64,000 nt of DNA from an uncultured Candidatus Binatia bacterium (GTDB taxonomy: Bacteria; Desulfobacterota; Binatia; UBA9968; JAJDTQ01), in contig OZ219754.1 in assembly GCA_964291295.2 (NCBI GenBank), positions 2,240,001 through 2,304,000 on the forward strand, in the 5' to 3' direction. Of this stretch, positions 9,129 through 57,164 are shown piece by piece. The notes below the pieces were generated by a model. It did not search any database and was not told the DNA's origin. It worked only from the letters and a program-made list of their open reading frames with translations. Numbering within the stretch: the first letter of the stretch is position 1; the number at the start of each line of letters is the position of its first letter. Made by a program: the position numbers and the translations under genes.

Positions 9129-9156
9129 GGATCGTCCTCGAAGGTTGGGGCGAGCG

Positions 9157-10035
9157 TCACGTTGCCCCGCCGAGGTCCCGTTCCCGCGCCGCCTTGATGG
9201 TGCGGCGGGCGCAGACCACGGCCATGTGGCGCTTGTAGTCGGCGTCGGCGTAGGAGTCGGCGTGCGGATCGATGCCGTCCGCGGCCCGCCCGGCCGCCGC
9301 TTCCACCACCTCCGGCGTCAGCGCCCGGCCCGCCAGGGCGGCCTCGGCCGCGGTTGCCCGGTGGGGGGTGCCGGCCACGCCTCCCAGCACCAGCCGCGCC
9401 CCGGTGCAGGCGCCGGTGCCGTCCACCGACAGCGCCGCCGCCGCGCTCACCACCACGTAACCGGAGGCCGGGTGAGGCAGCTTGGCGTAGCTCGTCCTGG
9501 CAGGGGGGGCGGGCAACGGGATGCGTACCGCGGTGAGGATCTCGTGAGGTTCCAGCGCGGTGGTGAAGAAATCCACGAAAAAGTCGTCAACCCCCACGGT
9601 CCGCTCGCCCCCGGACGAGGCCAGCACGAAGGAGGCGTCGAGGGCGGTCAGGGTCACCGGCAGGTCGGCGGCCGGGTCGGCGTGGGCCACGCTGCCGCCC
9701 AGGGTGCCGCGGTTCCGCACCTGCAGGTCGCCGATGACCGAGGCCGTGTCCGTCAGTCCCGGAAGCAGGTCGCGCACGATTTCCGACGCGCCCACTTCGG
9801 CGTGGGTGGTGAGGGCGCCGATGACCAGCGCCTCCCCTTCCAGCCGGATGCCGCTCAGGCCCGGTATGCGGCGCAGGTCGATGAGCACCTCGGGATGGGT
9901 CAGCCGGAGTTTCATGGCCGGAATCAGGCTGTGGCCTCCCGCCAGCACCTTGCCGTCCTCGCCGTGTTCCCGCAGCAGAGTGAAGGCTTCCTGAAGGGAG
10001 TGCGGCGCGTGATATCCGAAGCTAGCGGGATGCAT
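9157..10035 (-). CDS. Mo-hydroxylase FAD-binding medium subunit (CoxM/CutM-like)
   Basis: LAGGHSLIP and [17 protein letters not shown] motifs. Confidence 0.9.
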
Positions 10036-10516
10036 GTGCTCCCCTCATCTGCTCGGCGGCTCGGCGGATGGCCTTGACGATGTTCACATAACCGGTACAG
10101 CGGCACAGGTTTCCTTCCAGCGCGTGCTTGACGGCGTCCTCGTCGGGGTCCGGATCGGTCTCCAGCAGGTGGGCCGCGGTCATCACCATGCCCGGCGTGC
10201 AGTAGCCGCACTGAAGTCCGTGCTGCTCCTGGAAGGCCGCCTGCACGGGATGCAGGGTGGTGCCGTCCGCCATGCCCTCGATGGTCGTGACCGCGGCGCC
10301 GTCGGCCTGCACCGCGAGCACCGTGCACGACTTCACCGCGGCACCGTTCAGGTGCACCGTGCAGGCGCCGCACTGGCTGGTGTCGCAACCCACATGGGTG
10401 CCGGTGAGCCCGAGGTGCTCGCGCAGGAAATGAACCAGCAGCAGCCGCGGTTCCACCTCGGCCGCGCGGCCCTCTCCGTTGACGGTGATCTGGATGGGTA
10501 TTGCGGGATGTTCCAT
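10022..10516 (-). CDS. Mo-hydroxylase 2Fe-2S small subunit (CoxS-like)
   Basis: [19 protein letters not shown] and GNLCRCTGY motifs. Confidence 0.92.
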
Positions 10517-10595
10517 GGTTTCCTCGTCAGCGGCGCGTCTTCCCGGAGGAGCGGCGCATGGACCCGGCCGCCGGCGCTTCGCGTGACCCGGCGGG

Positions 10596-11885
10596 TCAGG
10601 ACCGCTCGTTCACCGGCACCGCCTTGCCGTTCACCGGTTCCGCGGGGTTGCCGGCGTGCGCGCCCGCCTGGCCGCCGCGCTTCCGGGCGCGGCGTTTGCG
10701 GGCCGGTCGCTTCCGTGCGGTTTCGGCGGCGTCCGGTTTCGCACCCCGTTTCCGGTCCGCCGGGCTGCCCGACGGCCGCGGGATGGGCTTGCCCAGGATG
10801 TTTTCGATGGCCCGCACCGACTGGCTGTCGGCGTCGGTGGCGAAGCTGGTGGCTCGTCCCACTGCGCTCATCCGCGCGGTGCGGCCGATGCGGTGGACGT
10901 AGTCTTCGGGCGTGTAGGGGAGATCGTAGTTGATGACGTGGCCGATGTTGTCGATGTCCAGACCCCGGGCGGCGATGTCGGTGGCCACCAGGATCCGGTA
11001 GCGGCCCCGGCGGAATCCCTCCAGTGCGGCCCGGCGTCGTTCCAGCGACAGGTTGCCATGGATCTCGGCGGCCCGGTGACCGCTGCGCCGCAGGGTTTCG
11101 GCGATGAGGTCGGCGCGGTTCTTGGTACGGGTGAACACCAGTACCGATTCGTCGTTGTTCTTCAGCAGGGAAAGCAGCAGGGAGGTCTTGGCCCCCGGTG
11201 TGGTGGTGTGAAGCGTGTGGGCGACGCCGTCCGCCGGGGTTGCCGGCCTGGCCACGACGGCGTGAAACGGATCGCGCAGGGACATGCGCGCCAACTCCTC
11301 CAGGTCCGTGGGAAGCGTCGCGGAATAGAGAAAGCTCTGCCGGCCCGGCGGCAGCGCGTCGATGATCTGGTTCAACTGGTCGGCGAATCCCATGTCGAGC
11401 ATGCGGTCGGCCTCGTCCAGCACCACCACCTCGACCTCCCTCAGGTCGAGGTGGCCGTCCCACATGAGATCGAGCAGCCGGCCGGGTGTGGCCACGACGA
11501 TCTCGGGATGTTGCCTGAGACCGCGGATCTGGGCCTGCATGTCGGCACCCCCCACCACGGTGGTGGCATAGACACGCAGCGAGCGCCCGAGCTGGTCGAT
11601 GGTCTCCTGTATCTGGAAGGCAAGCTCACGGGTGGGAGCGAGGATCAATCCACGGGGCGGCCCCGGCGGCGAGCCGGCGAGCCGTTCCACCATGGGAATC
11701 ACGAAGGCCGCGGTCTTGCCCGTGCCGGTCTGCGCGCAGCCCAGGATGTCGCAGCCCTCCAGGGCGGAGGGCAGGGCCAGTTGCTGGATGGGAGTGGGAG
11801 AGGCGAAGCCGACCTTGGCGAGATCCTTGAGCATCGGGTCGGACAAACCGAAGGCGTTGAAATTCGTACTGTCTGATTCCGGCAT
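10596..11885 (-). CDS. DEAD-box RNA helicase (RhlE-like)
   Basis: Q-motif [30 protein letters not shown] and HRIGRTAR; basic C-terminal tail. Confidence 0.93.
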
Positions 11886-30374: not shown

Positions 30375-32217
30375 ATGGAAAGGACGAGGACATTGATGTA
30401 CAGGATGATGTACGGGAATGTGGCGACGGTCTTGTGCGCGGTGGTGCTGGCCATGGGTCTTGCGGCATGCGGCGGCAGCAGCAACAACCGGACCCCGGAC
30501 ACTCCTACCCCCCCCCCCCCCCCCCCCGCTGACGGAAGTTGAGACGATCCTGAAGGAGGCTCGGACGGCGGCCATGACGGCATCCGGCAAGGCCATGACG
30601 GCGTCAGACAACGCCGGGACGTCGGCCGATGAGGCGGAAACGGCGACCATGGGTCTGGTGTTCCACCCTGTTCCCAAGAGGGAGATGACGGCGAAGAGCT
30701 ACGCGGAGGAGGCCCGGACCGCGGCCAACATGGCGAAGGCCGAGTACGACAAGGCCAAGATGGAGTCGGACAAGGCCGCGGCCACGAGCGACGTGCGTGC
30801 GGCCGCCAAGGCCAAAGTCGCAGCCGAGGCGGCTCAGGCGAAGGCCGAGGCTCAGGCGGCGACAGCCGCCGAAAAGGCGAAGATGGCGAAGGAAGCTGCG
30901 GCCAGGGAGGTCCGGCATGTCGAGGGAATGACCTACGAGTACGGCGGCACGCGCATCACCGCCGATGCCCCCAAGGTCACCGTCAAGACCGGGGGCAAGA
31001 CGGTGGAGAGCGGCAAGGCCGGGGACATCTCAGACGATTCAACTCGTTATTCAAAGGCCCCCGTCGCCTACGTGGCGGCAACGGATACCAAGCCGGAGGT
31101 GGCTGCCCGGACGGGATTCTATGGTCGCCTAATCAAGATCGGTTCCTACACCGACTCGGAGCAGGTCGGTTCCAGCATCGACTCGGAGGAGCTGGGTTCC
31201 ACCACCGAATCGGAGCAGTTCCGTCTCTGGCTGGTGGACAAATATATCACCAACACCAAGGCGGTGAAGGCCTACCGCAAGGACAGCGGTACTAACGGCG
31301 CCGAGTTCACGGCCCCGGTCACGGCAGAAAATCCGTTCGGCTCGCGCACCGTTGACAGCAAGACCTACAAGATCATGCGGGCGGAGGGGGAGTTCTATCG
31401 TGTCGACACCGAGGAGCATACGAAATTCGACAAGACGAATGCCAATGACTGGATCAATGTGACGCACACGGACGCGAACGCGGGCGTGGGGGTCTACTAC
31501 TACACGGATAGCAGCGGGAAAAAGGTCTATCTTCTGAGCACCGGAGCCGAGGGTGCCACGGGACTCAAGTACCGTCCGTTGCTCGTCTACGATGTGCCGG
31601 ATTTCCCGGAGGCGAAGCCCTACGAGCACATGAACTTCGGCATGTGGACCAAGAAGTCAAATCGGACCCACCTTGGCATCGCATTCGTCCAGGCGCTGCC
31701 GGGCAAGGGGCCGACCCCGACCGCCAACATGCCAAGCTTCGGCACCGCCACCTACGAGGGCCATGCATATTATCAAATCCGCGCCAAGAACAACGCTCGA
31801 ACCGTCGGCGGTTTTGCTGGAAACGCAACTACAACGGTGGATTTCGAGGAAAGCACCATCAAGACGGAAATGCACATAGTGTCTATCTATCCGAATAGGG
31901 CCAAACTTGTCCACGGACATCTCATCCCTTTCGCCACACTCCACGGCACCATCGACGGGAACCGGTTCTCGGGCAGTAAAGTGACCAATGTCAACACCGT
32001 GAACGCCGTTCCCGGCGGATTCGCAAATACCGTCGAACAACTTCGTGGCATTTTGAATTTGACCCCGAGCGAAGACGGCAGCCTGTATGAGGTGAGGGAG
32101 TACAGCGGCCATTTCTTCGGACCGAACGGCGAAGAGGTGGGCGGCGTGTTCGATGTCACGTCCAAGGACAAGAAGAGCGGCGAGTTTCGCGGCTCCTTCG
32201 GTGGCCGCAGGGAGTAA
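30375..32217 (+). CDS. TbpB-like (transferrin-binding protein B beta-barrel) surface lipoprotein, frameshifted at a C20 tract (phase-OFF or assembly error)
   Basis: AAGGAG RBS and signal peptide with lipobox GLAAC-GGSS in one frame. The Ala/Lys-rich stalk and C-terminal G.FFGPNGEEVGGVF...GSFGG barrel are in the +1 frame after the poly-C. Confidence 0.75.
30508..30527 (+). repeat. Homopolymer C20
   Basis: Counted directly. Confidence 0.9.
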
Positions 32218-44482: not shown

Positions 44483-45154
44483 CTACGTGGCGCCGGCGCC
44501 AAGGTCAGGCATTTCTCCGCGTTCCAACTGGTCGAAAGCCCGGAGCACGTAACGTTGTGTGCGGTACTCGCCGAATTGCTTCATTTCGTTCTGCTTGAGT
44601 GACGGAAACGAGGAGCTTGGCGGCTCGGCATCCAGGATCCATTGCAGATCGCAACGATTCAATCCGTACATGTGCGCAAAGACTGCATCGAGTTCACACC
44701 GCAGGCGATGGCGGCGCTGCTCGTCCCAAGGGAAGGGCGGACCTTCAAAACCCAGGTCGCCGGCGAATCCAGCCATATCCTCCGACGTATAGGTCAACTC
44801 CAAGACCCGCGGCACGATGTGTTGAACGTATGGCAGGCCGACGGTGCTGTGCTTCAAGTACTCCTCTGGCGGCAATACGGGGAGTTGCTTGACGATGAAG
44901 AAGCTCATGTGACTCCCGCCAACAGATACTCTGGCGGCCCAGTCGAGTGGCAGGCTGTTCATGTTCGCCAAGACCAGGAGTGAAGCCACTGCCCTTGCCC
45001 GGTCAAAATTCATCAACGAAGTTGTATGACCTGTGCCGCTCTCAGGCAGCGAAGCGGCGAGCAGTGTCCGCTCGTTGGTCGAATTCGTGATATCGCGAAA
45101 CGCTTGAAGAACCTTCACCGGGTCGAGTCGGATGATCGGAGCACCTTCGTTCAT
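44483..45154 (-). CDS. Possible separately translated C-terminal MTase fragment (223 aa; third recognition cassette plus C-terminus)
   Basis: ATG at 45154-45152 overlaps the upstream-frame TGA at 45153-45151 (ATGA). Confidence 0.45.
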   Translation of the reverse strand: MNEGAPIIRLDPVKVLQAFRDITNSTNERTLLAASLPESGTGHTTSLMNFDRARAVASLLVLANMNSLPLDWAARVSVGGSHMSFFIVKQLPVLPPEEYLKHSTVGLPYVQHIVPRVLELTYTSEDMAGFAGDLGFEGPPFPWDEQRRHRLRCELDAVFAHMYGLNRCDLQWILDAEPPSSSFPSLKQNEMKQFGEYRTQRYVLRAFDQLERGEMPDLGAGAT

Positions 45155-48100
45155 CGCTGAGGGTCCACGACAAACGGCAAAAATCGCCGTTCGCCGATTT
45201 GTTGCGTTTGTGATGTTCCTGAAGGAGAAAACCCAAGGAACAGTATCGTTGCCGTATGGCCCACTGCGACGCTCGGCATCATGGATATGACCCCGGTTCG
45301 CTCGTCGGTCGCTCGCGCGACATCCCGCAGAGCGAGTTGCCAGCCAAGGCGGCAAGAGCGTCGAATTCGATCTGTCGATCTGTCGATCTGTCGATCTGTC
45401 GATCTGTCGATCTGTCGATCTGTCGATCTGTCGATCTGTCGATCTGTCGATCTGTCGATCTGTCGATCTGTCGATCTGTCGATCTGTCGATCTGTCGATC
45501 TGTCGATCTGTCGATCTGTCGATCTGTCGATGAACAATCCTGTGCTCACTTCGCTCTTGTCAAGTCTTTCCGCAACTTCCCTTTCCGAAACCCAGTATCG
45601 TGGAACGGCAACGGTTCCCGGGTCCGACTTTTCTTTTGCGGTCATCAGGCGGGCGTTGCCCTTCTTGATGTCACTGTCAGAGACGTTATCGAAGGTGGCG
45701 AACCGGTGGTCGTACTGATGGAACAGCTTGGCCTCGTAGAGCGGCAGATAGCGCTCATCCTCCTTCACGAACACGCTGCCATCAAGCATCCACCCGTCGT
45801 CTTCCATCTCCGTTCGTGTTCGAAAGAGCCCGGAGTCGTTGGACATGTCAAACATGCGCTGGAATGACACGCCCCACGGATTGTCTTCCGGTTGCGAATC
45901 GTTGCCTTCCCTCCAGAACACCCCGGCGCGGCGGTACATCTTGCACGCGATTTCCATGTCGCGCCGCGTGCGGAAAATGGGGCAGGTCCGAGTATTGGGA
46001 TTGAACAGCGAGAAGTCTTCCGCGCTGAGCGTGAACCGCCGTTCAGCCTCCTTCAACTGTTCGGGCTGGTGCAGGAAGAAGGCGAACTCGGCTGCGGGAA
46101 CAGGATTGGCCTCGCCGCTCAGCGTGAGGAGGCTGAACTTGATCCGACTATGAATCCCGGGAAAGATTTTCTCCCGGTTCTCGAAGTCGAACAGGCTGAC
46201 AAGCCTTTTTTCTGAAACAATGTGGCCAAAGAACTTCTTGGTCGAGTCATCGGTGGCGATGCCGGTGGGCACGATCATCCCCGCACGACCTTGCGGGTTG
46301 AGGAGTTGCAGAAATGTCTCCGCGAATACGGCATAGGTGTTGAGATCACCGATCCCGGTCAGCGGGAATCTGCCGCCGGTCCGTGCATACTGGCTGGCCG
46401 CCTCAGCGTCATGTTTTGCGGTCTCAAATTCCCGAAAGAGGGCCTTTTCAAATGGCGGAGCCTCCTCGTGGTTCAGTTGCCGGATCAATCGGTCCCGTGC
46501 GGCCTTGTTGCGAGCGGCGGCGATTTCCGAATACCGCGAGGCGAAGAACTCCTGTTCCTGCAGCTTGATGCGCTCCCACGGCGGATTGCCGAGAACTACA
46601 TCGAAACCGCCTGCCTTCATGATCTTTTCAAACGCCAGATGCCAGTGCCGGAAATTGTGCTTGTAGGCCAGTCTCTTTTTTGCAAGGTCTACGACGTCAC
46701 GGCGCTGCAGGCGGTTCTCTCTCAGCCGCAAGAGGTCCCGGGTTTGGGGCACGATCTCCAGGGTTTTCGGTGTCTTGGGCGCGAAGTACGCACCCACAAA
46801 GAGGTCGGCGCACAGGGATTCGCGGGCTTGGTCGCTGAGCACCATCTGGTACGTGTCTCGTTTGTTCTCGACGTCACGCAGCGTGTTCTCGGGCATGGCA
46901 TTGAGATCGGGGCTTGCGTTGTCGATCTTCGGCACGGGGTCGTCAGTGAACGAGAGGTATTCCTGCCCCCTCTGGCTGTTGTGTTTCTTGAGATCACGGC
47001 AAACACCCTTGTCGTCTCCCGTCAACGGTTTGTAGGCGTCGCCCGGAATGCCGTTTTCCATGATCGCCGGATCGAGGATGCCGACCAGGCTATCGCCTTC
47101 AAGGATGTGGGCATCAAGGAATGTGAGCGGTTTGCCCGGCTCGACGGCTTCCATCCACAGGGCGGTCTTGCAGAGTTCGACGGCGAGCGGATTTCGGTCC
47201 ACGCCGTAGATGCAGTGTTGCAGCACCTCGCGCAGGGCATGTTGGCGGGCGGCTTCGTCCGGGGTGTCGCCGCTCGATTCGGCGCGGACGATCTCGGTGG
47301 CGAGGCGCCGCGCCGCCGCCAGCAGGAAGTGGCCCGAACCGCAGGCGGGATCGAGGATCTTCAATTCGAGAATGGCATCCCGGGGGGGGGGGGGTAGCTG
47401 CACCGTTGGCAACGGCCTGGCGAATGACGGGATCGAGCGTTGACTTGACGAGTTCGTTCACCAGTGCGGGGGGCGTGTAATAGGAACCCGTCAACTTGCG
47501 CTCGGACCCCCTGGTCTGTTCGCGGTTGTCGTCGCCGCTGAAGGTGAATGTCCACGGCGAAGTGTCCACATGGACGACGGGTCGAAGCTCCAGCAGGCTT
47601 TCGTATACCGACCCCAACTCTTCGGTGTCCATGTCCCGGTAGTTGACGCGGGCAAGCGTTTTGTCGGAGCGGAAGAATGCGAGTGTGCGAATCGCTTCCA
47701 GCAGGTGCTCGTTGGCGATGGCCGCACCGTCGAGGTCCGGGCACTGGTCGGCCCGGAACAGCTCGTCCAGAGCCGGCAGGCCAAGGTGGTCGCGAGCGCC
47801 CTCGGCCAGCGCCCGGAAGGTGACCTGAAGTCCTTGCCAGAGATCGTGGTTCCGGTCGTAGTGCCGGCGGCGCAGGGCGCGTTCGCGCAGCCGGGAGAGG
47901 GCATAGCCTTCGGCGAACACGGCGCGCTGTTCCCTGGTGGCCTCCGGTGCGTGGAGCAGATCGCGCTCCTCGGCCACGAAGAGAAAGAGCAGGCGGTAGA
48001 CGAGGCGAAGGATCTGCTGGAAGTAGCGCTCGGGCGAGAGCGCGCTGGATTGGCGCGAGCGCGACGGGGAGTCCGTTTCCCCGGAGGAGGGGAAGCGCCC

Positions 48101-48979
48101 TTCGGGCGGGAGGTCGCCGGACTCGCGCTCTTCGCCCAGTGCGAGGTTCTGGCGCAGTTCGGCGTTGGAGGGATGCTGCAGGAAGCCGTTGCCGAGTTGG
48201 CGCAGGGAGTCGGTGACGCCGTGGCGGAGATTCTCCCGGATCCGCTCGCCGGTCTCGTGCGCCTTCTTGCGCCAGGACTCGATGATGCATTGCGACGGGT
48301 CGCCGTTGTCGGGGCGAAGGCGGCTGGCATGGGTACAGAGCCAGAGTGCGGCGAAGTCGGAATAGAGTTTCTCGTCGAAGAGGAGATCGAGGTCGGCCTC
48401 GATGCAGGCGGGCCGGGTCAGGCTCGCGTTGTCGCGCAGAAGGCGGAGCTTCGATCCGTTGGAGACCATTCCCCACAGCGCTCCCTCCTCGGCGTTGAGG
48501 TACTCCTGCATCATGCCGTGGGGTGCCCGCCCGCGTCCGTCCTGCCCGAAACGCGGATCGGCCTTGTCCAGGTCGAAATCGCGCGTCACCAGCAGCATGG
48601 GCACGGTGCCGCCGCAGGCGCGGTGCGTCAATCTGAAGACGCGGTCCTCGCGCACGATCGCTCCGGCGGCGGTGAGGTCGTCATAGCCGAGAACCTTGCG
48701 CAGGAGCGGGTCGAGCCACTTCGCGACGCCAACCCGCGACCGGGGGATGTCGCGCCGTGGATGTCGCTCGGCATAGCGTCCGTGGAGGTCGCTGGCCATG
48801 CGCCAGTACCTGGCCAGTTCTTCCCTGACGGCGAGGGATTTCGACAGCCCGTAGTGGGCACCCGTCTGGCTCGGGGCCTTGAGCGCGGCCACGGTCTGGA
48901 GGAACTCCGGCGGCAGGATGCCGCCTTCGATCTTCAATGCCGTAAATCCCCGGCTTCGCCGCGCGCTCGCCACGGTCAC
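44483..48979 (-). CDS. N6-adenine DNA methyltransferase (Eco57I/type IIL, DrmMI-like), currently split by two SSR frameshifts
   Basis: GSYYTP, motif I DPACGSGHF, motif IV GNPPW. Segments are 48979-~47395, ~47394-45151 and 45154-44483. GTGA-coupled to the SNF2 gene. Confidence 0.88.
45367..45531. repeat. Perfect octamer SSR (TCGATCTG)20 + TCGAT inside the MTase CDS
   Basis: 160 bp of perfect repeat plus 5 bp; translates as (IDRSTDRQ)n with no stop in any frame. Confidence 0.97.
47382..47394. repeat. Homopolymer G13 (C13 on the coding strand) at the MTase frameshift
   Basis: Counted directly; C12 would fuse ...ANGAAT-PPP-RDAILELKILDPACGSG in frame. Confidence 0.9.
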
Positions 48980-51855
48980 ACTCCTGCCACGGGCATGAAG
49001 ACGTAGACGCCGATGGTGTCGATGGGCAGGGCCGGGACGACGTTGTAGCGCAGGCCCCGGGTAACGCTGGCCTCGCGGATGCGGCGGTGGTCGGCGAGCA
49101 ACCGCGCCGCCCGCTCCCGGGCCACGCGCTCGAAAACCTCTTCCAGGCCCGGCAATGCGGCGAGAGCCGCCTGAACGAGATGGGTCTTCTGGCCGCCGGC
49201 CATGTTGCGCGCCGGTTCGAGGGAGAGAAGCGAAAGCGCGTCGTCGTCGGTCAGAAGCTCGGCCGCGTCGCCGCCCCGGACGGCGATCCCGAGACACTCC
49301 TCGGCCAGCAGGGACTTGAACGGCGCGTAGCGGCCCTCCGCGTCCCGCCGCTCCACCAGGAGCTGGCTGCGCAGCCTCAGCAGGTAGAGCACGGTGCGCG
49401 CGGTGACGCCGCTCGTGAACATGGCGCCGGTGCGAGCGCCGACCGCCGCATTGCCGGCGTCGAGGGCCTGTTCGGCAACGAAGTCCGCAAGCGCGGCCAC
49501 CAGCGGATGGGTGCGGTGGATATAGGCCGCTCCGGCGGGTGCGGGTTGACGGAACGCCAGCTTCGCCGAGGCGGTGAAGCCGATGGCCTCAAGGCGCTCC
49601 TGAAGCGGTTTGGGCAGGTGCGCCGCCGGCAGCCGGCACCAGCCGTCCCGTGCGTCGAGCGGTGCCCCGAGCCGTTCGGCCGCCAGGTACACGAAGCGGG
49701 CGACGTCGTCCGGTCCCCCCAGGACGGAAACGGCCTTGCGCCATTCGGGCAGCACGTCGTCCGGCCTCAGACGCTGCTGGGCGAAGACCGTCCGTGTCAT
49801 CCTGCTGGCAGCCGTCCGCCAGGCGTCGTCGACCTGGGCTTCGGTGTCTCCCAGACCGAGTTCCGTCTGGACGTTCGGGGAAAGGGGGCCGCCGTGCAGC
49901 AGGACGGCCTTCATGATGGCGTCCACCACCTTGTGGTTGTCCTCGGGCAAGGGCACGGAAACGCCGAGTTCCTTGCGGATCTTTTCGGCCTTGCGGAGGA
50001 TGACGCGCAGCACCGCGCCGTCCACGGGATTGTCCTCGCCGTAGAGCATCAGTGCGCGAACGATCGGAGAGGATTGTCCGAAGCGGTCCGCACGGCCTTC
50101 GCGCTGCTCGTGGCGGGTGGGATTCCAGGTAAGGTCGTAGTGCACCACCGCATTGAAATGGCGCTGGAGATTGACGCCTTCGGACAGGCAGTCGGTGGCC
50201 ACGAGCACCGGCGCGACATTCCCGTCAAGGTCGGCAAGAGCCTCCACGCGTTCTTCGCGCTGATCGGAGGTGAGCTCCCCGGTGACCACGGTGAGGTGCG
50301 CCTTCGCTCCCGTCAGGGCGTCGCTCAATGCTTCGCCTACGTAGTGCGCGGTGGCGATGTAGCGGCAGAACACCACCGGGCGGAAGCCGTCCCGCAGGAG
50401 TTTCCTGACCTCGTTGACAAGGGTGTCGAGCTTGGGGTCCTTGCCGGGGCCGCGCAGCGCCTCCGCGCGGTCGATGAGTTCGCGCAGCGCCGCGGTGTCC
50501 TCCACCTCGTCAACGGTGCCGGCAGGAATGCTCTCGTCAAGGGTGAGGGAGTCGTCGGCGGTTTCGTCCATCACCGTCTCGACCGCCGTATGCTCCAGAT
50601 TGGCAAGCTGCTCCTCGGCGCTCTCGCCCGTGGCGGCCTCAAGGCGGGTCCGAAGCGCAAGCGCCGCGGCCGCCGGGCTTGAGGAGACGCAGCGCAGAAG
50701 CGCCAGCGCCGCCCACCAGGACATGCGCTGTTGGAGTTTCGAGCCGCTTTCGGCACGCCGCACCATGGTTCGCGCGTAGGCGAGCACGTCGTTGACGATT
50801 CGGCCCCAGTCGCCGGTGAGCCGGTAGGTGGCCTCCCGGCTCTCCCGAGCGGGGAAGCCGGCCTGGTCCTTCCATTCGGCGATGTCGCCGCGGCGGCGCT
50901 GCACGAAATGCAGCGCGAGTTCTTCGCGCAGGCGCCGGCGTTGGCCGCCTTCGGGGGTGTGGGCCAGTCCGGCGAACTTCGGCTCCAGCAGGCCCAGCAG
51001 ATTGTGGAAGGCGGTGTCATCGCCCGAGTGCGGCGTGGCGGTAAGGAACACCATGTTTCGCCGGGGCTCGCTCTCGGCGAGACCCTTGAGCAGCTGGTAG
51101 CGCTGGTGGCGGGTATTCGTGTTCGACTGCACGCAGGCGTGGGCCTCGTCGACGATGACGAACTCCGGGCAGGCGCGCAGGAAGTCGCCGCGGCGCCGGT
51201 CCGACTTGATGTAGTCGAGGGACACCACCGTGAAGGGGTAGACCTCGAACACCGATTCGCCGGGCGGCAACCCGCGTTCGAGTCGGGCGGCCGTGCCGGT
51301 GCGTACGACTTCGGCATCAATGCTGAACTTCTCCGCGAGTTCCCGTTGCCACTGTTCGCACAGATGCGGCGGACAGATGACGGCGAACCGTTCGATCTCG
51401 CCGCGGTCCAGCAGTTCCCGCGCAATGAGGCCCGCCTCGATGGTCTTGCCGATGCCGACGTCGTCGGCCACCAGCAGCCGGACGGTGTCCAGTTTGAGGG
51501 CCATGAGCAGGGGTGCCAGTTGCCAGGTGCGCGGTTCGACATTGAGATTGCCGAAGCTCCGGAAGGGTCCGGCCCCGGAGCGGAGCTTGAGACGCAGCGC
51601 GTCGCGCAGCAGCAGGGCCGCCTCCCGGGAACCCGGCGTGTCGGGGTCGGGGAGATCGAAGGTCGCGGGTACCGGCGCCTCGGGCTCAAGCGGGAGCCAG
51701 ATGAGGGTGGCATCGTCCTCCGCACCGCCCAGTGGCCGCAGCTTCAGGAGATTCTCGCGCGTCTCCGGCAGCACCACCCATTCCCGACCACGCGCCCGGA
51801 CCAGATTCCCGGGTCTGAACTCCACCGGAGTCGGTGCCGCCAACCGTTGCATCAT
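48976..51855 (-). CDS. SNF2-family helicase (DrmD-like)
   Basis: PG.LVRARGREWVV N-terminus, ADDVGIGKT, DEAH, TATPH, SEGVNLQ and EQREGR.DR motifs. Confidence 0.9.
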   Translation of the reverse strand: MMQRLAAPTPVEFRPGNLVRARGREWVVLPETRENLLKLRPLGGAEDDATLIWLPLEPEAPVPATFDLPDPDTPGSREAALLLRDALRLKLRSGAGPFRSFGNLNVEPRTWQLAPLLMALKLDTVRLLVADDVGIGKTIEAGLIARELLDRGEIERFAVICPPHLCEQWQRELAEKFSIDAEVVRTGTAARLERGLPPGESVFEVYPFTVVSLDYIKSDRRRGDFLRACPEFVIVDEAHACVQSNTNTRHQRYQLLKGLAESEPRRNMVFLTATPHSGDDTAFHNLLGLLEPKFAGLAHTPEGGQRRRLREELALHFVQRRRGDIAEWKDQAGFPARESREATYRLTGDWGRIVNDVLAYARTMVRRAESGSKLQQRMSWWAALALLRCVSSSPAAAALALRTRLEAATGESAEEQLANLEHTAVETVMDETADDSLTLDESIPAGTVDEVEDTAALRELIDRAEALRGPGKDPKLDTLVNEVRKLLRDGFRPVVFCRYIATAHYVGEALSDALTGAKAHLTVVTGELTSDQREERVEALADLDGNVAPVLVATDCLSEGVNLQRHFNAVVHYDLTWNPTRHEQREGRADRFGQSSPIVRALMLYGEDNPVDGAVLRVILRKAEKIRKELGVSVPLPEDNHKVVDAIMKAVLLHGGPLSPNVQTELGLGDTEAQVDDAWRTAASRMTRTVFAQQRLRPDDVLPEWRKAVSVLGGPDDVARFVYLAAERLGAPLDARDGWCRLPAAHLPKPLQERLEAIGFTASAKLAFRQPAPAGAAYIHRTHPLVAALADFVAEQALDAGNAAVGARTGAMFTSGVTARTVLYLLRLRSQLLVERRDAEGRYAPFKSLLAEECLGIAVRGGDAAELLTDDDALSLLSLEPARNMAGGQKTHLVQAALAALPGLEEVFERVARERAARLLADHRRIREASVTRGLRYNVVPALPIDTIGVYVFMPVAGV

Positions 51856-54800
51856 GGCCGCTCGCTCCTTGACGATGCGCCGGGTCCGAACACCCAGGTG
51901 TATCTGGCCGCAATGCACGGCCAGGACCACCGGTCCGCCGGAAAGCGGACCACGGTATAGCCGGCATCGGCGAGGCGTTGGTCGATGGCCTCGTCGGCGC
52001 TTTCCCGCACCCGTGTCTGATGGTGCGGGCCGTCAATGTAGACCAGGGTCTGCGAAGCCGTGTAGACGAAATCGGGGCGGGTTGCATGGAGTTTCAGATT
52101 GATCTGAGCCCGGTCGGGCAGGCGGTAACCATTGGACTTGATGAACTTGAGCCACTCCTTCTCCAGGGAAGACGATGAAGCGTTCGTCAGTTCATCGTAG
52201 CTGTTGCCGTCGGTGATCCCGTACGCCAGAGCCTTTGCCGAACTGTGAATGAGCCGGCATAGCAGGCTCCGCATCTCGTCGTCCCGCCGGTCGACAAGCG
52301 GATGGTCCGGTTGGTTGTAGTAGCTCAACAGGCAGCGGTAGCATCCCGCCTCGCACTCGTCGTCGAGATTCTCAAGGTCGCCGGACCCGGACCAGTCGCC
52401 GGACTTCGATCTGTAGTGGCAGACTTCCAGCGCCCGGCGAGCGATGCGCGCAAGGGTCCCGGGGGCGTTGGCCAGACGCGTGAGCACGCCGGCGCCGCCT
52501 TCGGCGGCCTCGTAAAACAGAATCGTGGTGCGGTGGTTCCGGTCGGGCAGCGGCTCGGCGGCAAGCTCGGCCTCTTCCAGTTGAAACTCCTGCTCGATGC
52601 CGCGCTTGATGGCGTATTGCAGCGAGACTCGGGCGGTTTCGGAGAGGTGGGCGGGCGGACGAAGCATCAGAACATTGCGCGTGTCTGCCACGAACGGTGT
52701 GACGCGCTCGACTGTCTTGCCCTCGCTCACGCTGTCGTCTTCGGCATCGTCAGGGGCCTGCGAATCCTTGGTCCACTCGCCGGTATGGGGATTGACGCTG
52801 AAGCCGTAGATGGACTTTACCTTGCGCCGGCGCCAGCCGAGATTGATGCGCCAGAGCCAGGCGGCGGGGCCATAGTGCAATTCCAGCAGGGTGTCGCCGC
52901 CTTCCACGACGGCGATGCCCTGGACCCGCGCGCGACCCCCCTCTTCACTGAAGCGGAGGGTCGTGATCATCTCGTAACCTTGGCGCTGGCGCTCCTCTTC
53001 ATCCGAGGTGATGCGGTTCGCCCGCCGTGTGGACACCTGCTCGATACGGTAGAGGTTCAGGATCGAGCGCCCACCGTCGAGGCGTTGACCGCAGTTGACG
53101 CAGCGCTCGTACTCCCTCTGGTCCCCGAAGTGTCCATAGCCGCACGCCGGACAGATGCGGGCGGCCTGTACCGGAAGACGGGCCGATACCGTTACCCTGG
53201 ACGTGTCGCGCAGGGAGAGAATGGCTCGGCGCACGCGATAGGTGCTGCCCTCGTGGTAGATGATGGACTGGGGGCCGAACTCGCTGAGTCCAAGAAATCG
53301 CGGCCGGCTCAGGAACGAATCCCGGCCCACCTTCTCGCGCCGGCCGGGAACGAACGCCATCAGCGGCAGGCGCGGGAAGTTGTAGCCCGGCAGGAATCCC
53401 TGCGCGGCGAGATAGCGGTAGGTGTAGAAGTCGGAGTTCATCGTCGCCCGGTGGCCGAGCAGCAGGTTCTGCTGCGTGAACGCTTCGTCGAGCCGTGCCT
53501 TGGCCTCGCCGCGCTCCCCCTCGGCGGCGGCGGCATTGTTGATGACATCGTTGGCCAACTTCATCTGACTCGCCGTCGCGCGGAACAGCGAGCGCCAGCG
53601 CTCGAACGCTTCGTCGAAGCGGCGAGCGGCGGAGTTCATCACGGCGTCGCACCAGGTGTCCGTGTACCAGGGCGCGGCCTGGCCCCCGAGATCGGTGGCG
53701 AGCGTTGCGAGAACGCCGTGGGCGCGCCGCTGCACGTTGTCCACGACCCGGGAGGCGCCGATCTGGTCCGCCACCTCGGCGTGGAGCGGCAACGTATCGG
53801 ACTTCTCCCGATCGAGCACATCGGGCACCGATGAGCCGAGTTGCACGCCGGTCTCCCCGAGCCAGACCGCCTGCAGATGGCTGCGGATCAGGTCTTCGTT
53901 GGCCAGGTCGATGTTCGGTGGATTGACCGCGCCGGCCACCATGCGTTTCGGATCGGAAAAGAAATACTGGTCGTGCGGCGACCGCGCCGCGCAGTAGGTG
54001 ACCACCAGGGCGGGCTGGCCGCTCCGTCCCGCCCGTCCGCTGCGCTGGGCGTAGTTGGCAGGTGTCGGCGGCACGTTGCGCATGTAGACCGCGTTCAGCA
54101 TGGAGATGTCGACGCCGAGCTCCATGGTTGGCGAACAGAACAGGATGGGCAGTCCCGCCGGTTCGACCGTGCCGTCGACGACGCGTTCGCCCGCCAGCCC
54201 CTTGCGGAATCGCGCCTCGCGCTTCTCGCGGGTGTCCGCATCCACCTGCGCCGTGTGTTCCCGCGCCTCAAGCTGGTGCAGAAGACGGTCGCCGCCGTCG
54301 AGCATTCCCGACACATTCCGGTAGAGGTCGCGGAAAAACCCGTTCGGCTCTTGCGGTTTGCTGCCGGCGTCGTCCGCCAGGCGCCATTCGAGGACCGAAC
54401 TGTCGATGCGGTAGCCGGTGCGCGCGCCGTCAAGGTCCGTCGGCTCGACATGGCCGTAGGTCGTCAGCACCCCGAGGATGTCGTCCATCACGTGGTTGTA
54501 GACATCCTCGTCGAACCTGGACGGCCAATGGGGGTTGCGCTGGCCCCAGAACGGCCGGGACCGCACCCTGTGGCCGAATGCGGAGCGGTACGAGATGTGC
54601 AGAGCCCGGTAGTCCCGCCGGCGTCCCGGGCCGCCGGGCCGGGGAACCATGAAGGCGTGCGAGAACAGGCGCTCGTCTTCCGACAGGCCCCAGGGTTCCC
54701 TGAGCTCGTTGAAACTCCGGTTGCGCACCTGTTCCTGGAAGTTGGGGTCGAGGTAGATGGTCTTGATGCAGAGCCCCCGGCGCATTTGCTCCAGGAGTTC

Positions 54801-57164
54801 GCAGATGATCTCGAAGCGGCGGTCCGGCGTGATGGAGCCGAGCAGAGGATGCCGCGCACGCCATTCCTCCTCGTCCCCGCAGCACTCCCGGAGTCCCCTG
54901 TAACCGATCTTCAGGAGGTTCAACTGTTCGAGATTGGGATTGTTGATGCGCCAGCCGCGTTGCAGGTCAAAGTACATCCGGTAGCCGAGCACGTCGCGCA
55001 GCGCCTTGCGCGTGCTCTCCTTCTTGATGCCCTTGGCCTTGGGATTGGCGGCGTAGTCCTCGGGGGCGAGGTGCAGGTGCGCAAGCACGCTCCGGGTCAG
55101 GGTATCGTCGGTGAGCAGGCCGCCCTCGTCGGCCCGAATGGCCGCCAGCAACGCGCCCCGCAGCATCAGAATCTGCACGAAATCGTTGAAATGGCCGGCC
55201 TGCAGGCTCGCGTCCTGACGGTTGTCGGTAAAGGCGAGAAGTTTCTTGGTCCGTTCGTCGAGATCGGTGTGGATGAGGTGCTTGAGCGAGGACAGCGCGA
55301 GCATGGTGGTGGCGGAACTGCGGCCTTCGCTCGACAGCCCGGAGACTTTGGAGAAATCGCTCCGCTTGCCGCTTTCGTACCAGGCGTTGCACTCCGGGTG
55401 CAGGCAGAAACGGAACGATCCGGGAATGAACCAGGCGGGCAAGCCGCCGGCGGCCGCGCTGCCGGTGGTGTCCACCTGCACGGCGACGGGACGGTAGCGG
55501 CGATAATGTGACTTGAGGCGTGGTTCGTCTCCGCGGTATTCCAGCCACTCTTCCGGGTATCGGGTTTTCACATCCGCGGAATCGAACAGCCCCGACGGAT
55601 CGGGCATGAGATAGCCGAACTGGATCTCCTCGTCCTCGCTGGCGCGTTCGGACAGGTCGCGGGGGTCGAACCCCTGAGGTGTCCTGCCCGCCAACTTCGC
55701 CCACACGGGATGGTATTCCTGCCCGCAGGCTCGGCAGAAGCAGAGCGGATAGAGGCGGCGTTCGCGGTCGCCCGGCTTGAACTGCTGTCCGTTCAGGGTG
55801 ACATGGCGCTCGCCCTTTGCCTCCAGCGTCGAGTAGACGTTCCAGGATCCGCTGATGAACTGATGCAGGCGGAACGCAAAGAAGCTCTGGCCCCGCTCGT
55901 TCCGGCTCGCGTGGGCGGCCAGCAGGAACCTGGCAAGATAGTGGCCGCAGAGGTCGGCGTCGAGACCGCACTCGTTGGCCAGCGCCTGCGAGGCTTCGCG
56001 TATCGTCAGGGGCTGCGAAGTGCGTTCCAGCCTGCCGTCGCGCTCTTCCAGCCCCAGATTGTGCTCTACCCAGGCAGCGACGGGGTGTCCGGACAACGCG
56101 TCATGTGTCATGGGTGGACTGTCCGGCACGCCTTTTTCGATGGCGGCGCGAAGGTCGGCGCCGGCGGGGCCTGCCTCGGACCGGGTTACGCGTTGCAGTG
56201 TTTCGGAAACAACGTTGCCGGGATCCACCGTGTCACCGAACAGGCGGCTTGCGATGCGCGCCACCGCCATGTTCCGGCCTTCCTGCGACCCTTCCGGGGC
56301 CATGGTCGCGGAAGTGCCGATGCAGAGAAGCTGCTGGTTGAAGCGTTCCCGCACCCGGCGGACCAGCATGGCGACATCGGCGCCCTGCCGACCGCGGTAG
56401 GTGTGCAGTTCGTCCAGTACCAGGAACCGGAGTCCGGCGGCGTGTTCACGGATCGCCTTGTCGGTCTCCTGGAACCGCGTCATGACCAGTTCGAGCATGA
56501 CGTAGTTGGTCAGCAGAATGTCCGGAGGGTTGCTGGCGATGCGCTCGCGTTCCTCGTTCGATTCCTGTCCGGTGTAGCGGGCGAAGGTGACGGGCTCGCC
56601 GGCCTCGCCGTAACCGAACTGGAGATATTTCTTCAATTCCTCGCACTGACTGTTGCACAGCGCATTCATCGGGTAGACGACGACGGCGGTGATGCCCTTG
56701 CCGGCGTCGCCCGCGCGTTTGCGCCGCAGCACATCGTCAACGATCGGAATGAAGTAGGCGAGGGACTTGCCGGAACCGGTGCCGGTGGTCAGCACGTAGC
56801 TCTTCCCGCGCTTGGCGATGGCGATGGCGTCGGTCTGGTGCCGGTGCAGCCGGAGGCGCTCGCCAAAGGTGTCGCCGGCGTGCTTGAGCCGGAAGACTTT
56901 CGCGCATTCCCTGTCCAGGGTGCCGTCGGCCACGAGCTCGTCGACCCACTTGCCCGGCTTGAAGTTCGGATTCAACTGGATGAGCGGGGCCGGCCAGAAA
57001 CGGCTCTCCTTATCGGCCGCATCCACCGCGTCGGAGATGTCCTCGGCCCGGATGTGGGTGAAGCTGCGGGAAAACCGGCTGTACTCGGCGACGAGTTCGT
57101 TGCGAAATGCGAAAACGTCCATCAGTTGCCGCGATTGCCGAGATGAAACAGGGCGGTCGGACAT
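51852..57164 (-). CDS. Large SF2 DEAD/DEAH helicase with DUF1998 (YprA/DrmA-DrmB/DruE-like) and a C-terminal nuclease-like domain
   Basis: TGTGSGKS, DELH.YRG.QG, SAT, MELGVDI, QRSGRAGR, several CxxC pairs, C..GCY.CL (DUF1998), and PDF...IDGPHH (Vsr/DUF559-like). Confidence 0.9.
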   Translation of the reverse strand: MSDRPVSSRQSRQLMDVFAFRNELVAEYSRFSRSFTHIRAEDISDAVDAADKESRFWPAPLIQLNPNFKPGKWVDELVADGTLDRECAKVFRLKHAGDTFGERLRLHRHQTDAIAIAKRGKSYVLTTGTGSGKSLAYFIPIVDDVLRRKRAGDAGKGITAVVVYPMNALCNSQCEELKKYLQFGYGEAGEPVTFARYTGQESNEERERIASNPPDILLTNYVMLELVMTRFQETDKAIREHAAGLRFLVLDELHTYRGRQGADVAMLVRRVRERFNQQLLCIGTSATMAPEGSQEGRNMAVARIASRLFGDTVDPGNVVSETLQRVTRSEAGPAGADLRAAIEKGVPDSPPMTHDALSGHPVAAWVEHNLGLEERDGRLERTSQPLTIREASQALANECGLDADLCGHYLARFLLAAHASRNERGQSFFAFRLHQFISGSWNVYSTLEAKGERHVTLNGQQFKPGDRERRLYPLCFCRACGQEYHPVWAKLAGRTPQGFDPRDLSERASEDEEIQFGYLMPDPSGLFDSADVKTRYPEEWLEYRGDEPRLKSHYRRYRPVAVQVDTTGSAAAGGLPAWFIPGSFRFCLHPECNAWYESGKRSDFSKVSGLSSEGRSSATTMLALSSLKHLIHTDLDERTKKLLAFTDNRQDASLQAGHFNDFVQILMLRGALLAAIRADEGGLLTDDTLTRSVLAHLHLAPEDYAANPKAKGIKKESTRKALRDVLGYRMYFDLQRGWRINNPNLEQLNLLKIGYRGLRECCGDEEEWRARHPLLGSITPDRRFEIICELLEQMRRGLCIKTIYLDPNFQEQVRNRSFNELREPWGLSEDERLFSHAFMVPRPGGPGRRRDYRALHISYRSAFGHRVRSRPFWGQRNPHWPSRFDEDVYNHVMDDILGVLTTYGHVEPTDLDGARTGYRIDSSVLEWRLADDAGSKPQEPNGFFRDLYRNVSGMLDGGDRLLHQLEAREHTAQVDADTREKREARFRKGLAGERVVDGTVEPAGLPILFCSPTMELGVDISMLNAVYMRNVPPTPANYAQRSGRAGRSGQPALVVTYCAARSPHDQYFFSDPKRMVAGAVNPPNIDLANEDLIRSHLQAVWLGETGVQLGSSVPDVLDREKSDTLPLHAEVADQIGASRVVDNVQRRAHGVLATLATDLGGQAAPWYTDTWCDAVMNSAARRFDEAFERWRSLFRATASQMKLANDVINNAAAAEGERGEAKARLDEAFTQQNLLLGHRATMNSDFYTYRYLAAQGFLPGYNFPRLPLMAFVPGRREKVGRDSFLSRPRFLGLSEFGPQSIIYHEGSTYRVRRAILSLRDTSRVTVSARLPVQAARICPACGYGHFGDQREYERCVNCGQRLDGGRSILNLYRIEQVSTRRANRITSDEEERQRQGYEMITTLRFSEEGGRARVQGIAVVEGGDTLLELHYGPAAWLWRINLGWRRRKVKSIYGFSVNPHTGEWTKDSQAPDDAEDDSVSEGKTVERVTPFVADTRNVLMLRPPAHLSETARVSLQYAIKRGIEQEFQLEEAELAAEPLPDRNHRTTILFYEAAEGGAGVLTRLANAPGTLARIARRALEVCHYRSKSGDWSGSGDLENLDDECEAGCYRCLLSYYNQPDHPLVDRRDDEMRSLLCRLIHSSAKALAYGITDGNSYDELTNASSSSLEKEWLKFIKSNGYRLPDRAQINLKLHATRPDFVYTASQTLVYIDGPHHQTRVRESADEAIDQRLADAGYTVVRFPADRWSWPCIAARYTWVFGPGASSRSERP

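Follow-up and report, generated by a model that had tools for sequence, protein, structure and literature searches.

The question raised by this locus is what a long tandem repeat does when it lies late in the coding sequence of a defence methyltransferase (MTase) and is followed by several diverged copies of one protein segment in different reading frames. The locus lies on contig OZ219754.1 (positions 2,240,001 to 2,304,000 of the forward strand, assembly GCA_964291295.2) of an uncultured Candidatus Binatia bacterium, and this whole stretch of 64,000 nt is called the window here. On its minus strand, the gene for an Eco57I/DrmMI-like N6-adenine DNA MTase contains an octanucleotide simple sequence repeat (SSR), and behind it three paralogous segments, the cassettes C1, C2 and C3. 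An earlier note, made from the sequence alone, had proposed that slippage of the repeat selects the reading frame without any invertase and thereby switches the specificity of the enzyme three ways. The anatomy of the gene and the conserved layout in its relatives support the first part of this proposal, namely that the repeat is a frame selector and not mere damage. As to what is selected, we consider it fairly probable that slippage chooses among a full-length protein, a protein terminated after C1 and a null product, which would make the repeat an isoform switch.

Repeat, cassettes and reading frames

As assembled, the MTase gene is divided over three frames: an N piece of 526 codons which terminates at a C13 tract, a middle piece and a C piece, all of them still open and conserved. 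Its features, all on the minus strand, are as follows.

48973..44483, minus strand: Eco57I/DrmMI-like N6-adenine DNA MTase gene, about 1490 codons (from Pfam, PADLOC and homologue lengths)
47382..47394, minus strand: C13 homopolymer on the coding strand, second hypermutable tract, 91 nt past the YYTP motif
47412..45151, minus strand: open reading frame (ORF) of the middle piece, with the catalytic motifs, the octamer repeat and C1
45355..44483, minus strand: ORF of the C piece, with C2, C3 and the C-terminus
45367..45531, minus strand: octanucleotide SSR (CAGATCGA)20.6, read here as the frame selector (Tandem Repeats Finder)
45235..45342, minus strand: cassette C1, 36 codons, frame x, begins WQLALRDVARATDERT... 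at 45342
45113..45235, minus strand: cassette C2, 41 codons, frame z, begins WVFSFRNITNATNRRT... at 45235
45005..45112, minus strand: cassette C3, 36 codons, frame z, begins VLQAFRDITNSTNERT... at 45112
44486..45004, minus strand: C-terminal, mostly helical domain, frame z (from the model of homologue L088 and selection analysis, both below)
45279..45281, minus strand: TGA ending frame y, forced by a conserved Met codon and a next codon starting with A in C1
45151..45154, minus strand: ATGA overlap of the x-frame TGA (45153-45151) with a z-frame ATG (45154-45152)

Tandem Repeats Finder reports a single array at 45367-45531 with period 8, 20.6 copies and 100% matches. It lies about 1150 codons into the gene, translates as a (DRSTDRQI)n peptide in all frames, and, besides a 10-mer repeated six times, is the sole long SSR with a unit of 4-11 nt in the 3.7-Mb genome. 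As a perfect tandem repeat within an ORF, with a unit which is not a multiple of three, it has the form of an SSR contingency locus, and because 8 mod 3 = 2, each unit gained or lost shifts the frame. With n=20, the assembled state (frame x), C1 is in the frame of the ORF 47412..45151 and translation stops at TGA 45153-45151; this protein ends 27 codons past the 36th codon of C1 and is without about 290 C-terminal residues. With n=19 or 22 (frame z), the DNA of C1 is read free of stops, and translation runs on through C2 and C3 to the C-terminus. For n=18 or 21 (frame y), it stops at TGA 45281-45279, within C1.

The earlier note had described an octamer repeated 20 times and then three diverged copies of one segment, with C1 in the current frame and C2, C3 and the C-terminus one frame off, and it had derived the outcome and stop codon for each repeat number. 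The array and the cassette starts at 45342, 45235 and 45112 all check out, and the minus-strand and three-frame translations agree with the frames, outcomes and TGAs. Its three-way switch holds in part. Within the window, the three cassettes share two frames (C1 in one, C2 and C3 in the other) and the third frame has none; the switch of the window is one of two productive positions and one null, not of three recognition alternatives. Three cassettes in three frames are found in four relatives, as described below.

The gene has its probable start at GTG 48973-48971, with a GGAG 7 nt upstream. It belongs to the Eco57I family (Pfam PF07669, 82.9 bits on protein P0001, cutoff 25.3), and the translation of 47412..45151 contains, in this order, DPACGSGHF and NPPW, which we take to be the S-adenosylmethionine-binding and the catalytic motif, respectively. 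The PADLOC profile DrmMI (PDLC02643) matches the middle piece (2.4e-48) and the N piece (5.5e-23) with partial coverage of the profile, and homologues at full length have 1400-1460 aa. MmeI_Mtase scores 28.3 bits against a cutoff of 27, and PADLOC REase_MTase_IIG profiles match portions of the MTase. The earlier note had called the enzyme type IIL-like, and this assignment fell. A type IIG/IIL (MmeI-like) enzyme would carry a fused nuclease together with MmeI_TRD and MmeI_C, but a Pfam search found MmeI_TRD, MmeI_C and TaqI_C in 0 of 10 C-terminal regions and no family in the N piece. When the same search was extended to E-values of up to 10, none of the 10 C-terminal regions gave a relevant family, and there was one chance match to DUF4212.

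The C13 tract at 47382-47394 also bears on what the gene can produce, since at C12 or C15 the N-terminal 526 codons would be fused in frame with the remainder. No homologue has a tract at this site, and for this reason C13 is called lineage-specific; it is a second switch, which is OFF as assembled. Two sequencing runs of one study were matched, both as assembled contigs (X1 with a share of 0.97 and X2 with a share of 0.63). In the part of the gene beside the repeat (45532-49500), the contigs of run X1 equal the window, and one of them spans C13 unchanged. Over the same part, run X2 carries a close variant of the gene, which has scattered single-nucleotide polymorphisms and in which a few stretches are replaced; among the pieces listed for X2, none spans C13. 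More than one strain of the MTase locus is present in the study that yielded X1 and X2.

Conservation of the layout in related loci

A total of 82 loci were compared, 80 of them from genome contigs and one from a genome of the same genus. The conserved ...DHR...RYW anchor is present in 66 of these, and the 16 anchorless loci were left unscored. We found a hypermutable tract at the same site, starting 36-91 nt past RYW, in all 26 loci of the clade with the motif ..QYDHR[FY] and in none of the 40 more distant anchored loci. The earlier note had suggested checking whether homologues carry one segment or an SSR plus several cassettes, and both forms occur, the distant homologues being single-cassette. 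The tract unit is 1 nt in six loci (G9 to G51), 4 nt in seven, 5 nt in eight, 7 nt in one, 8 nt in two (the window and L030), 10 nt in one and 11 nt in one, and thus in none of the 26 is it a multiple of 3. Since the sequences of the units vary from locus to locus, the tracts turn over while the site and the frame-shifting property stay; the genome of the same genus, for example, has (CGAC)37.5 at the tract site. At the matching site, full-length homologues contain repeated peptides, among them (AEPSR)n, (SRAEQ)n and (DPTRP)n, followed by an apparent out-of-frame cassette. The clade loci come from at least seven high-rank lineages, as labelled in the sequence records (Alpha- and Gammaproteobacteria, Rhodothermales, Acidimicrobiia, Bryobacterales, Verrucomicrobiae, Longimicrobiales, Caldilineaceae and Dehalococcoidia). 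The recurrence of the layout across so many bacterial groups looks like that of an evolved switch, not of damage.

The cassettes share the motif W-x-x-x-x-R-x-I-x-x-x-T-x-x-R-T...P...G. C1 aligns without gaps with the single canonical cassette of distant homologues, and C3 is the copy nearest to that single cassette. C1 and C2 were measured in 12 loci, L022 being left out because of a 3-nt insertion in C1. In all 12 of them C1 precedes C2 by exactly 107 nt (35 codons and 2 nt), and the frame offset is therefore fixed. Across these loci the entropy of C1 by codon position is 0.88/0.49/1.25 bits, with position 3 highest at a bootstrap value of 1.000. The ratio of non-synonymous to synonymous differences (pN/pS; 66 pairs) of C1 is 0.48 in its own frame x, 1.64 in frame z and 0.88 in frame y, and that of C2 in its own frame is 0.49. 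For the C-terminal domain, pN/pS is 0.27. Frame z is open across C1 in all 12 loci, although synonymous resampling keeps it open in only 0.10-0.32 of trials per locus; frame y is closed in all 12. An RTGA overlap, in which the TGA lies over a z-frame ATG or GTG, is found at C1R+171 or C1R+174 in 9 of the 12, where C1R+n denotes n nt after the first base of the first Arg codon of C1. A slippery heptamer of the form X_XXY_YYZ in frame x between C1 and the stop was found in 0 of the 12.

Cassettes of like rank are closer to each other across loci (identity 0.50 for C1-C1 and 0.55 for C3-C3) than are cassettes of different ranks within one locus (0.30-0.37), which indicates that the copies predate the clade and have not been homogenised. 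The DNA identity among the cassettes of the window is 0.38-0.50, too low for recombination between them. These sequence comparisons show the cassettes to be genuine paralogous coding units, each under selection in the frame that belongs to it, and they also show selection for an open frame z across C1.

A second subfamily (L017, L035, L072 and L083) has three cassettes 113-119 nt apart in three different frames, with stops after the first and second cassette and the C-terminal domain after the third. In this subfamily C1 and C2 show third-position variability in their own frames only. Here, the three-way arrangement of the earlier note is found. In locus L034, from a metagenome-assembled genome (MAG) of Arenicellales (9114-10600), a G10 tract is set to the C1 frame and the full-length frame has a stop inside C2, while the ORF of C3 plus the C-terminal domain behind the ATGA is intact; its pN/pS is 0.23-0.32 as compared to 0.27 in the others, at saturated synonymous sites. 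Judged from its sequence, L034 may be a natural split form, which would be compatible with re-initiation at the ATGA. In another locus, L024 (Bryobacterales MAG), about 530 nt of extra DNA lie between C2 and C3, and C3 is in yet another frame.

Relatives also differ in the frame to which their tract is set. Among 20 readable loci, five are in the full-length frame, six, including the window, are in the first-cassette frame and nine are in the remaining frame, of which seven are null and two are set to a second cassette. This census left out L025, which has a run of N, the four related contigs which end within the tract, and L030. Near-identical alleles vary as well. In clusters whose members share at least 90% identity, the tract of P0028 reads (DTTRH)x4 and that of P0131 x5, and P0020 and P0124 have unlike tracts. 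P0130 is set to the second-cassette frame; its C-terminal part is annotated on the same contig as an ORF of its own, P0129. Variation of tract length among close alleles, as expected of a contingency locus, is thus found in relatives only, and slippage in the organism of the window is what we infer.

No structured part of the protein is less conserved than the C2-C3 block, whose mean pairwise identity within the clade is 0.39-0.49 as compared to 0.5-0.8 elsewhere, whereas the core positions of the cassette (W, R, T, R-T and P) are invariant or nearly so family-wide. Two homologues, P0019 and P0133, which are 93% identical overall, are 97.3% identical over residues 1-1140 (1109/1140), 54.4% over 1141-1275 (74/136) and 97.8% over 1276-1410 (132/135). 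The divergent 136 residues reach from the end of C1 through C2 and C3 into the first helix. Such a mosaic pattern implies that alleles have exchanged the cassette block by recombination. Mosaic behaviour is also shown by the recognition modules of mod and hsdS genes.

Structure of the cassette region and rival explanations

The place of the cassette in the fold was examined on the one-cassette homologue L088, of which 885 aa, beginning with the MTase domain, were modelled with AlphaFold2; the model has a mean predicted local distance difference test (pLDDT) of 91.2 and a predicted template modelling score of 0.90. The cassette, placed by the invariant alignment positions W684, L685, R689, R698, T699, I701 and P706, comprises residues 684-718. 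In the model it forms strands at 684-689, 702-706, 709-711 and 714-718 (block pLDDT 95/77/97/95) beside the RYWV strand 664-667, and is followed by a helical C-terminal domain at 724-881 with pLDDT above 90. Thus, as modelled, the cassette is a core beta-meander in the domain which follows the MTase domain. The SSR is located in a surface loop ahead of the first cassette strand, a loop in which other homologues have insertions of 100-150 aa.

In BrxX/PglX, CamA, M.BseCI and M.TaqI, the region after the catalytic domain reads DNA. Whole-chain fold matches of L088 include BrxX bound to DNA (9ewz_C, E 9.8e-16), PglX (8c45_A, 5.3e-14), CamA bound to DNA (8cxs_A, 5.8e-13, TMt 0.55), M.BseCI and M.TaqI, in an output which carries no residue mapping. 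When the C-terminal 365 aa were compared with the atlas, the look-alikes included MmeI_TRD/MmeI_C (0.92) and TaqI_C (0.90) clusters, which serve as leads only, and a profile search of solved structures gave weak matches to the MTase part alone (E 0.07-0.15). The predicted fold of the domain and the variable, mosaic C2-C3 block would fit a recognition role.

From these results the following course of events can be proposed. The clade would have acquired a hypermutable tract in the surface loop directly before the last beta-meander, the cassette, with paralogous copies of the cassette downstream in staggered frames. Slipped-strand mispairing would alter the number of 8-nt units and thereby the frame in which the ribosome exits the repeat. 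In frame z, the DNA of C1 would be read as an unconstrained linker, followed by C2, C3 and the C-terminal helical domain to give the full-length enzyme. In frame x, C1 would be translated and would complete the sheet, giving an isoform without the C-terminal domain, and termination-reinitiation at the ATGA could yield another chain made up of C3 and the C-terminal domain. In frame y, a stop in C1 would leave no cassette and a null product. The independent C13 tract would act as a master ON/OFF switch for the whole gene. We prefer the view that the output of such a switch would be a changed activity state, with or without the C-terminal domain and fused or split, not a new recognition motif.

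The same genetics could also underlie a switch of specificity, in which the C1 and the C2-plus-C3 isoforms recognise different DNA motifs and shift the target of methylation or defence. Consistent with this, the fold matches of L088 are enzymes whose domain after the MTase reads DNA, the atlas look-alikes are of the same kind (as leads), the C2-C3 block is least conserved and mosaic in P0019/P0133, and programmed inversions swap the variable parts of DrmMI, DISARM-like and PglX genes, according to PMC9881135. On the other hand, the fold search gives no residue-level mapping of the cassette to a DNA-contacting element, a family of target recognition domains was found in 0 of 10 C-terminal regions, and sequence matches to solved structures cover only the MTase part, weakly. 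In addition, the core motif of the cassette is near-invariant across the family, the C1 isoform differs chiefly by the loss of about 290 C-terminal residues, and C2 and C3 of the window are not mutual alternatives. We regard a change of motif as rather unlikely; of the earlier note's claim that specificity is switched instead of the gene being turned ON or OFF, the selection by frame of a distinct protein under selection stands, and the change of specificity keeps this low standing. A wider version, which we hold to be just as doubtful, would see up to three alternative last modules of the recognition domain in overlapping frames, with the repeat as a three-position selector. In loci of the L017 type each frame would then give a cassette-bearing enzyme, and in the window n=20 would give an enzyme split into two chains, an MTase that ends with C1 and a re-initiated chain of C3 and the C-terminal domain, and this enzyme would differ in DNA specificity or defence activity from the fused one of n=19; the whole would be an invertase-free shufflon in frames, spread horizontally across many phyla.

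Plain ON/OFF switching, with only the full-length frame working and C1 a relic of an old duplication which needs only stop-free read-through, is the common case for SSR-driven restriction-modification (RM) MTases (PMC5909438, PMC7383803 and PMC4889913), and here frame y is a plain null and C13 a plain ON/OFF tract. However, a relic would not retain coding-type constraint (pN/pS of C1 0.48, equal to that of C2; third-position bootstrap 1.000) or hold the 107-nt offset in 12 of 12 loci, and the read-through frame is constrained only to stay open (pN/pS 1.64). Moreover, there are relatives with a cassette in every frame, and 6 of 20 readable assemblies are in the first-cassette frame. This explanation seems to us improbable. 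Decay of a pseudogene or an assembly artefact, with the frameshifts as errors or decay at repeats, would suit a gene which lies in three frames, long repeats and homopolymers which are prone to error, and four related contigs which end in the tract. Yet the staggered cassettes lie outside the repeat and are independent of its length, all pieces are open and conserved with a C-terminal pN/pS of 0.27, the same design is found in 26 loci of many lineages, and the X1 contigs match the flanks and C13 exactly, so that we give it very little credence. Programmed -1 ribosomal frameshifting, which would join C1 to C2 such that n=20 also gives a full-length C1-C2-C3 protein, has in its favour a database homologue, P0007, in which C1, a portion of C2, and C3 are fused in a single frame with no SSR between them, and thus such a protein can exist; but the slippery heptamer is present in 0 of 12 loci and P0007 is explained by an indel, and we find frameshifting scarcely credible.

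Several points weigh against the isoform switch. For this organism the reads are represented by Logan contigs, which cannot resolve a repeat of 165 nt. The stability and activity of the C1-terminated isoform are what we infer. C13 also breaks the frame, and the consensus genotype would therefore make none of the three C-terminal states from the N-terminal start. The loci compared are related, so that the counts, and any product of the resampling figures, overstate independence, and pS between loci is high (0.6-0.9). The overlap of TGA and ATG could have arisen incidentally from the conserved residues A-[MV]-[SN] in C2. The C-terminal half of a three-cassette homologue, L016, folded poorly, with pLDDT below 50 at residues 185-337, the stretch which comprises the repeat peptide, the linker, C2 and C3, and a Foldseek search of this model against the PDB gave nothing (best E 1.7). 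A predicted complex of the mid domain of the window with C1 scored 0.39, the best of three controls scoring 0.00, with a partner pLDDT of at least 56 and at least 63% of contacts shared between runs. Of 80 solved complexes, 58 reached the mark that it passes, as did 2 of 110 mismatched pairs; with scores of up to 0.60, only 7 of those 80 reached it, plus both of the passing mismatches. These counts hold only roughly, as own alignments were used here. The test thus lends weak support to a pairing of the mid domain with C1.

The defence system and known switches

Two further genes lie directly upstream of the MTase gene, on the same strand.

48976..51930, minus strand: SNF2-family helicase gene, DrmD/DpdE-like (Pfam SNF2-rel_dom and Helicase_C), directly upstream of the MTase gene
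51852..57164, minus strand: 1770-aa DEAD-box helicase fused to MZB/DUF1998, DrmA+DrmB-like and DruE-like (Pfam DEAD, Helicase_C and MZB)

The stop of the SNF2 gene overlaps the start region of the MTase gene, and the three genes are found together in 76 related loci by tblastn. The helicase-MZB/DUF1998 protein, the first gene of the set, has DruE as its best PADLOC name (1.7e-91); it unites, in fused form, a DrmA helicase and DrmB (DUF1998), which together with DrmD, DrmMI and DrmC are the components of class 1 DISARM (defence island system associated with restriction-modification). No phospholipase D domain, as in DrmC, was found by Pfam in the 22 flanking ORFs of the window, and therefore the set is filed as DISARM-like and not as canonical class 1 DISARM. 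The MTase gene is thus that of a three-gene DISARM-like defence system, and its product is probably also the DNA-recognition subunit. Loci 'similar to Class 1 DISARM' with the helicase and DUF1998 in one coding sequence (CDS) are described by Milman et al. 2023 (PMC9881135), and the present locus resembles them in its single helicase-DUF1998 CDS. The SNF2 helicase matches the PADLOC profiles DpdE (3.2e-205, full length) and DrmD (5e-86), and the far better score of DpdE raises the question of a relation of the three-gene set to Dpd-type systems. The flanks are ordinary, with cupin, EutA and the pyridoxal phosphate enzyme PALP on one side and an MscS channel on the other, and the G+C content is 0.60-0.62 over 44-48 kb as compared to 0.65-0.70 around.

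Several elements of this proposed switch have precedents. SSR-driven phase variation of MTases is known for type III (mod), type I (hsdM/hsdS) and type IIG enzymes (PMC5909438, PMC7383803 and PMC4889913), and the type IIG enzyme Cj0031 of Campylobacter jejuni has a polyG tract (PMC9881135). Like these phasevarions, the present gene has a repeat in the ORF of an RM MTase, with a unit which is not a multiple of 3 and whose slippage would give heritable, reversible heterogeneity of frame. Unlike the phasevarions, whose tracts lie near the 5' end or act as simple ON/OFF switches, the repeat here is late and followed by staggered copies of a conserved segment, and the second frame gives a different protein under selection, not a null. 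In the type I system NgoAV of Neisseria gonorrhoeae, a polyG tract at hsdS1's 3' end decides between a truncated active subunit and a fused longer form (PMC9577141). NgoAV is thus similar in having a late homopolymer in a specificity gene and frames with different outcomes, but it is without duplicated out-of-frame cassettes, its truncated HsdS works by dimerisation of half-subunits, and it is known from a single species and not as a layout across phyla. C-terminal phase variation by homopolymers near 3' ends has been described in Helicobacter canadensis (PMC2823697), where, as here, slippage at a late repeat changes the C-terminus instead of abolishing the protein; the tails there are a few unselected residues, whereas here they are paralogous units of 36-41 aa under purifying selection in their own frames.

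The programmed inversions of Milman et al. 2023 (PMC9881135) act on the same kind of gene, of which the middle-to-C-terminal part varies while the termini are constant, and one locus of the BREX (bacteriophage exclusion) type splits PglX at the end of its variable region. These inversions use a recombinase, inverted repeats and silent gene copies, in contrast to the present locus, where there is no recombinase, the frames overlap on the same strand and the length of the repeat chooses. PglX/BrxX of BREX (9ewz, 8c45 and 8q56) is the best fold match of L088 (E 9.8e-16 to 7.3e-13), and both are large gamma-class N6-adenine MTases with a post-catalytic recognition region in a multi-gene defence system. 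Sequence similarity is confined to the MTase part, and the partners of the BREX enzyme are BrxA/B/C, PglZ and BrxL, as opposed to the helicase-DUF1998 and SNF2 proteins here. The pglX gene of Streptomyces carries a polyG tract.

For staggered, separately selected cassette paralogues chosen by a repeat, no description was found in a literature search which was incomplete, with most subscription journals outside it and supplements unseen. Repeat switching of RM MTases, late-ORF variation, truncated HsdS and swapping by invertases are already known, and staggered cassettes chosen by a repeat appear to be new.

Homopolymer tracts are also found elsewhere in the genome (G000, 3.7 Mb, about 67% G+C), with 37 runs of G or C of 10-27 nt. 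One of these in the window is a C20 tract at 30508-30527, about 90 nt into a lipoprotein gene on the plus strand (30418-32217; local G+C 0.605). Its product carries a signal peptide in which there is a lipobox-like LAACGG, and a beta-barrel of the TbpB type (PF01298, 3.8e-16), and the gene resembles a classic surface-protein contingency locus. From these sequences, the organism seems to use many homopolymer switches.

Repeat-driven phase variation has usually been framed as ON/OFF switching and mostly in host-adapted pathogens, whereas here a repeat picks among conserved modules in staggered frames, in a design which is maintained with ever-changing units in the defence systems of environmental and symbiotic bacteria of many lineages. 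Should the isoforms prove to differ in activity or target, a defence system would here be diversified within a clone by recombinase-free means. If the reading proposed here is true, the locus would also provide a clear example from nature of dual-frame coding under selection, and MTase genes of this kind which appear 'frameshifted' should not be filed as pseudogenes.

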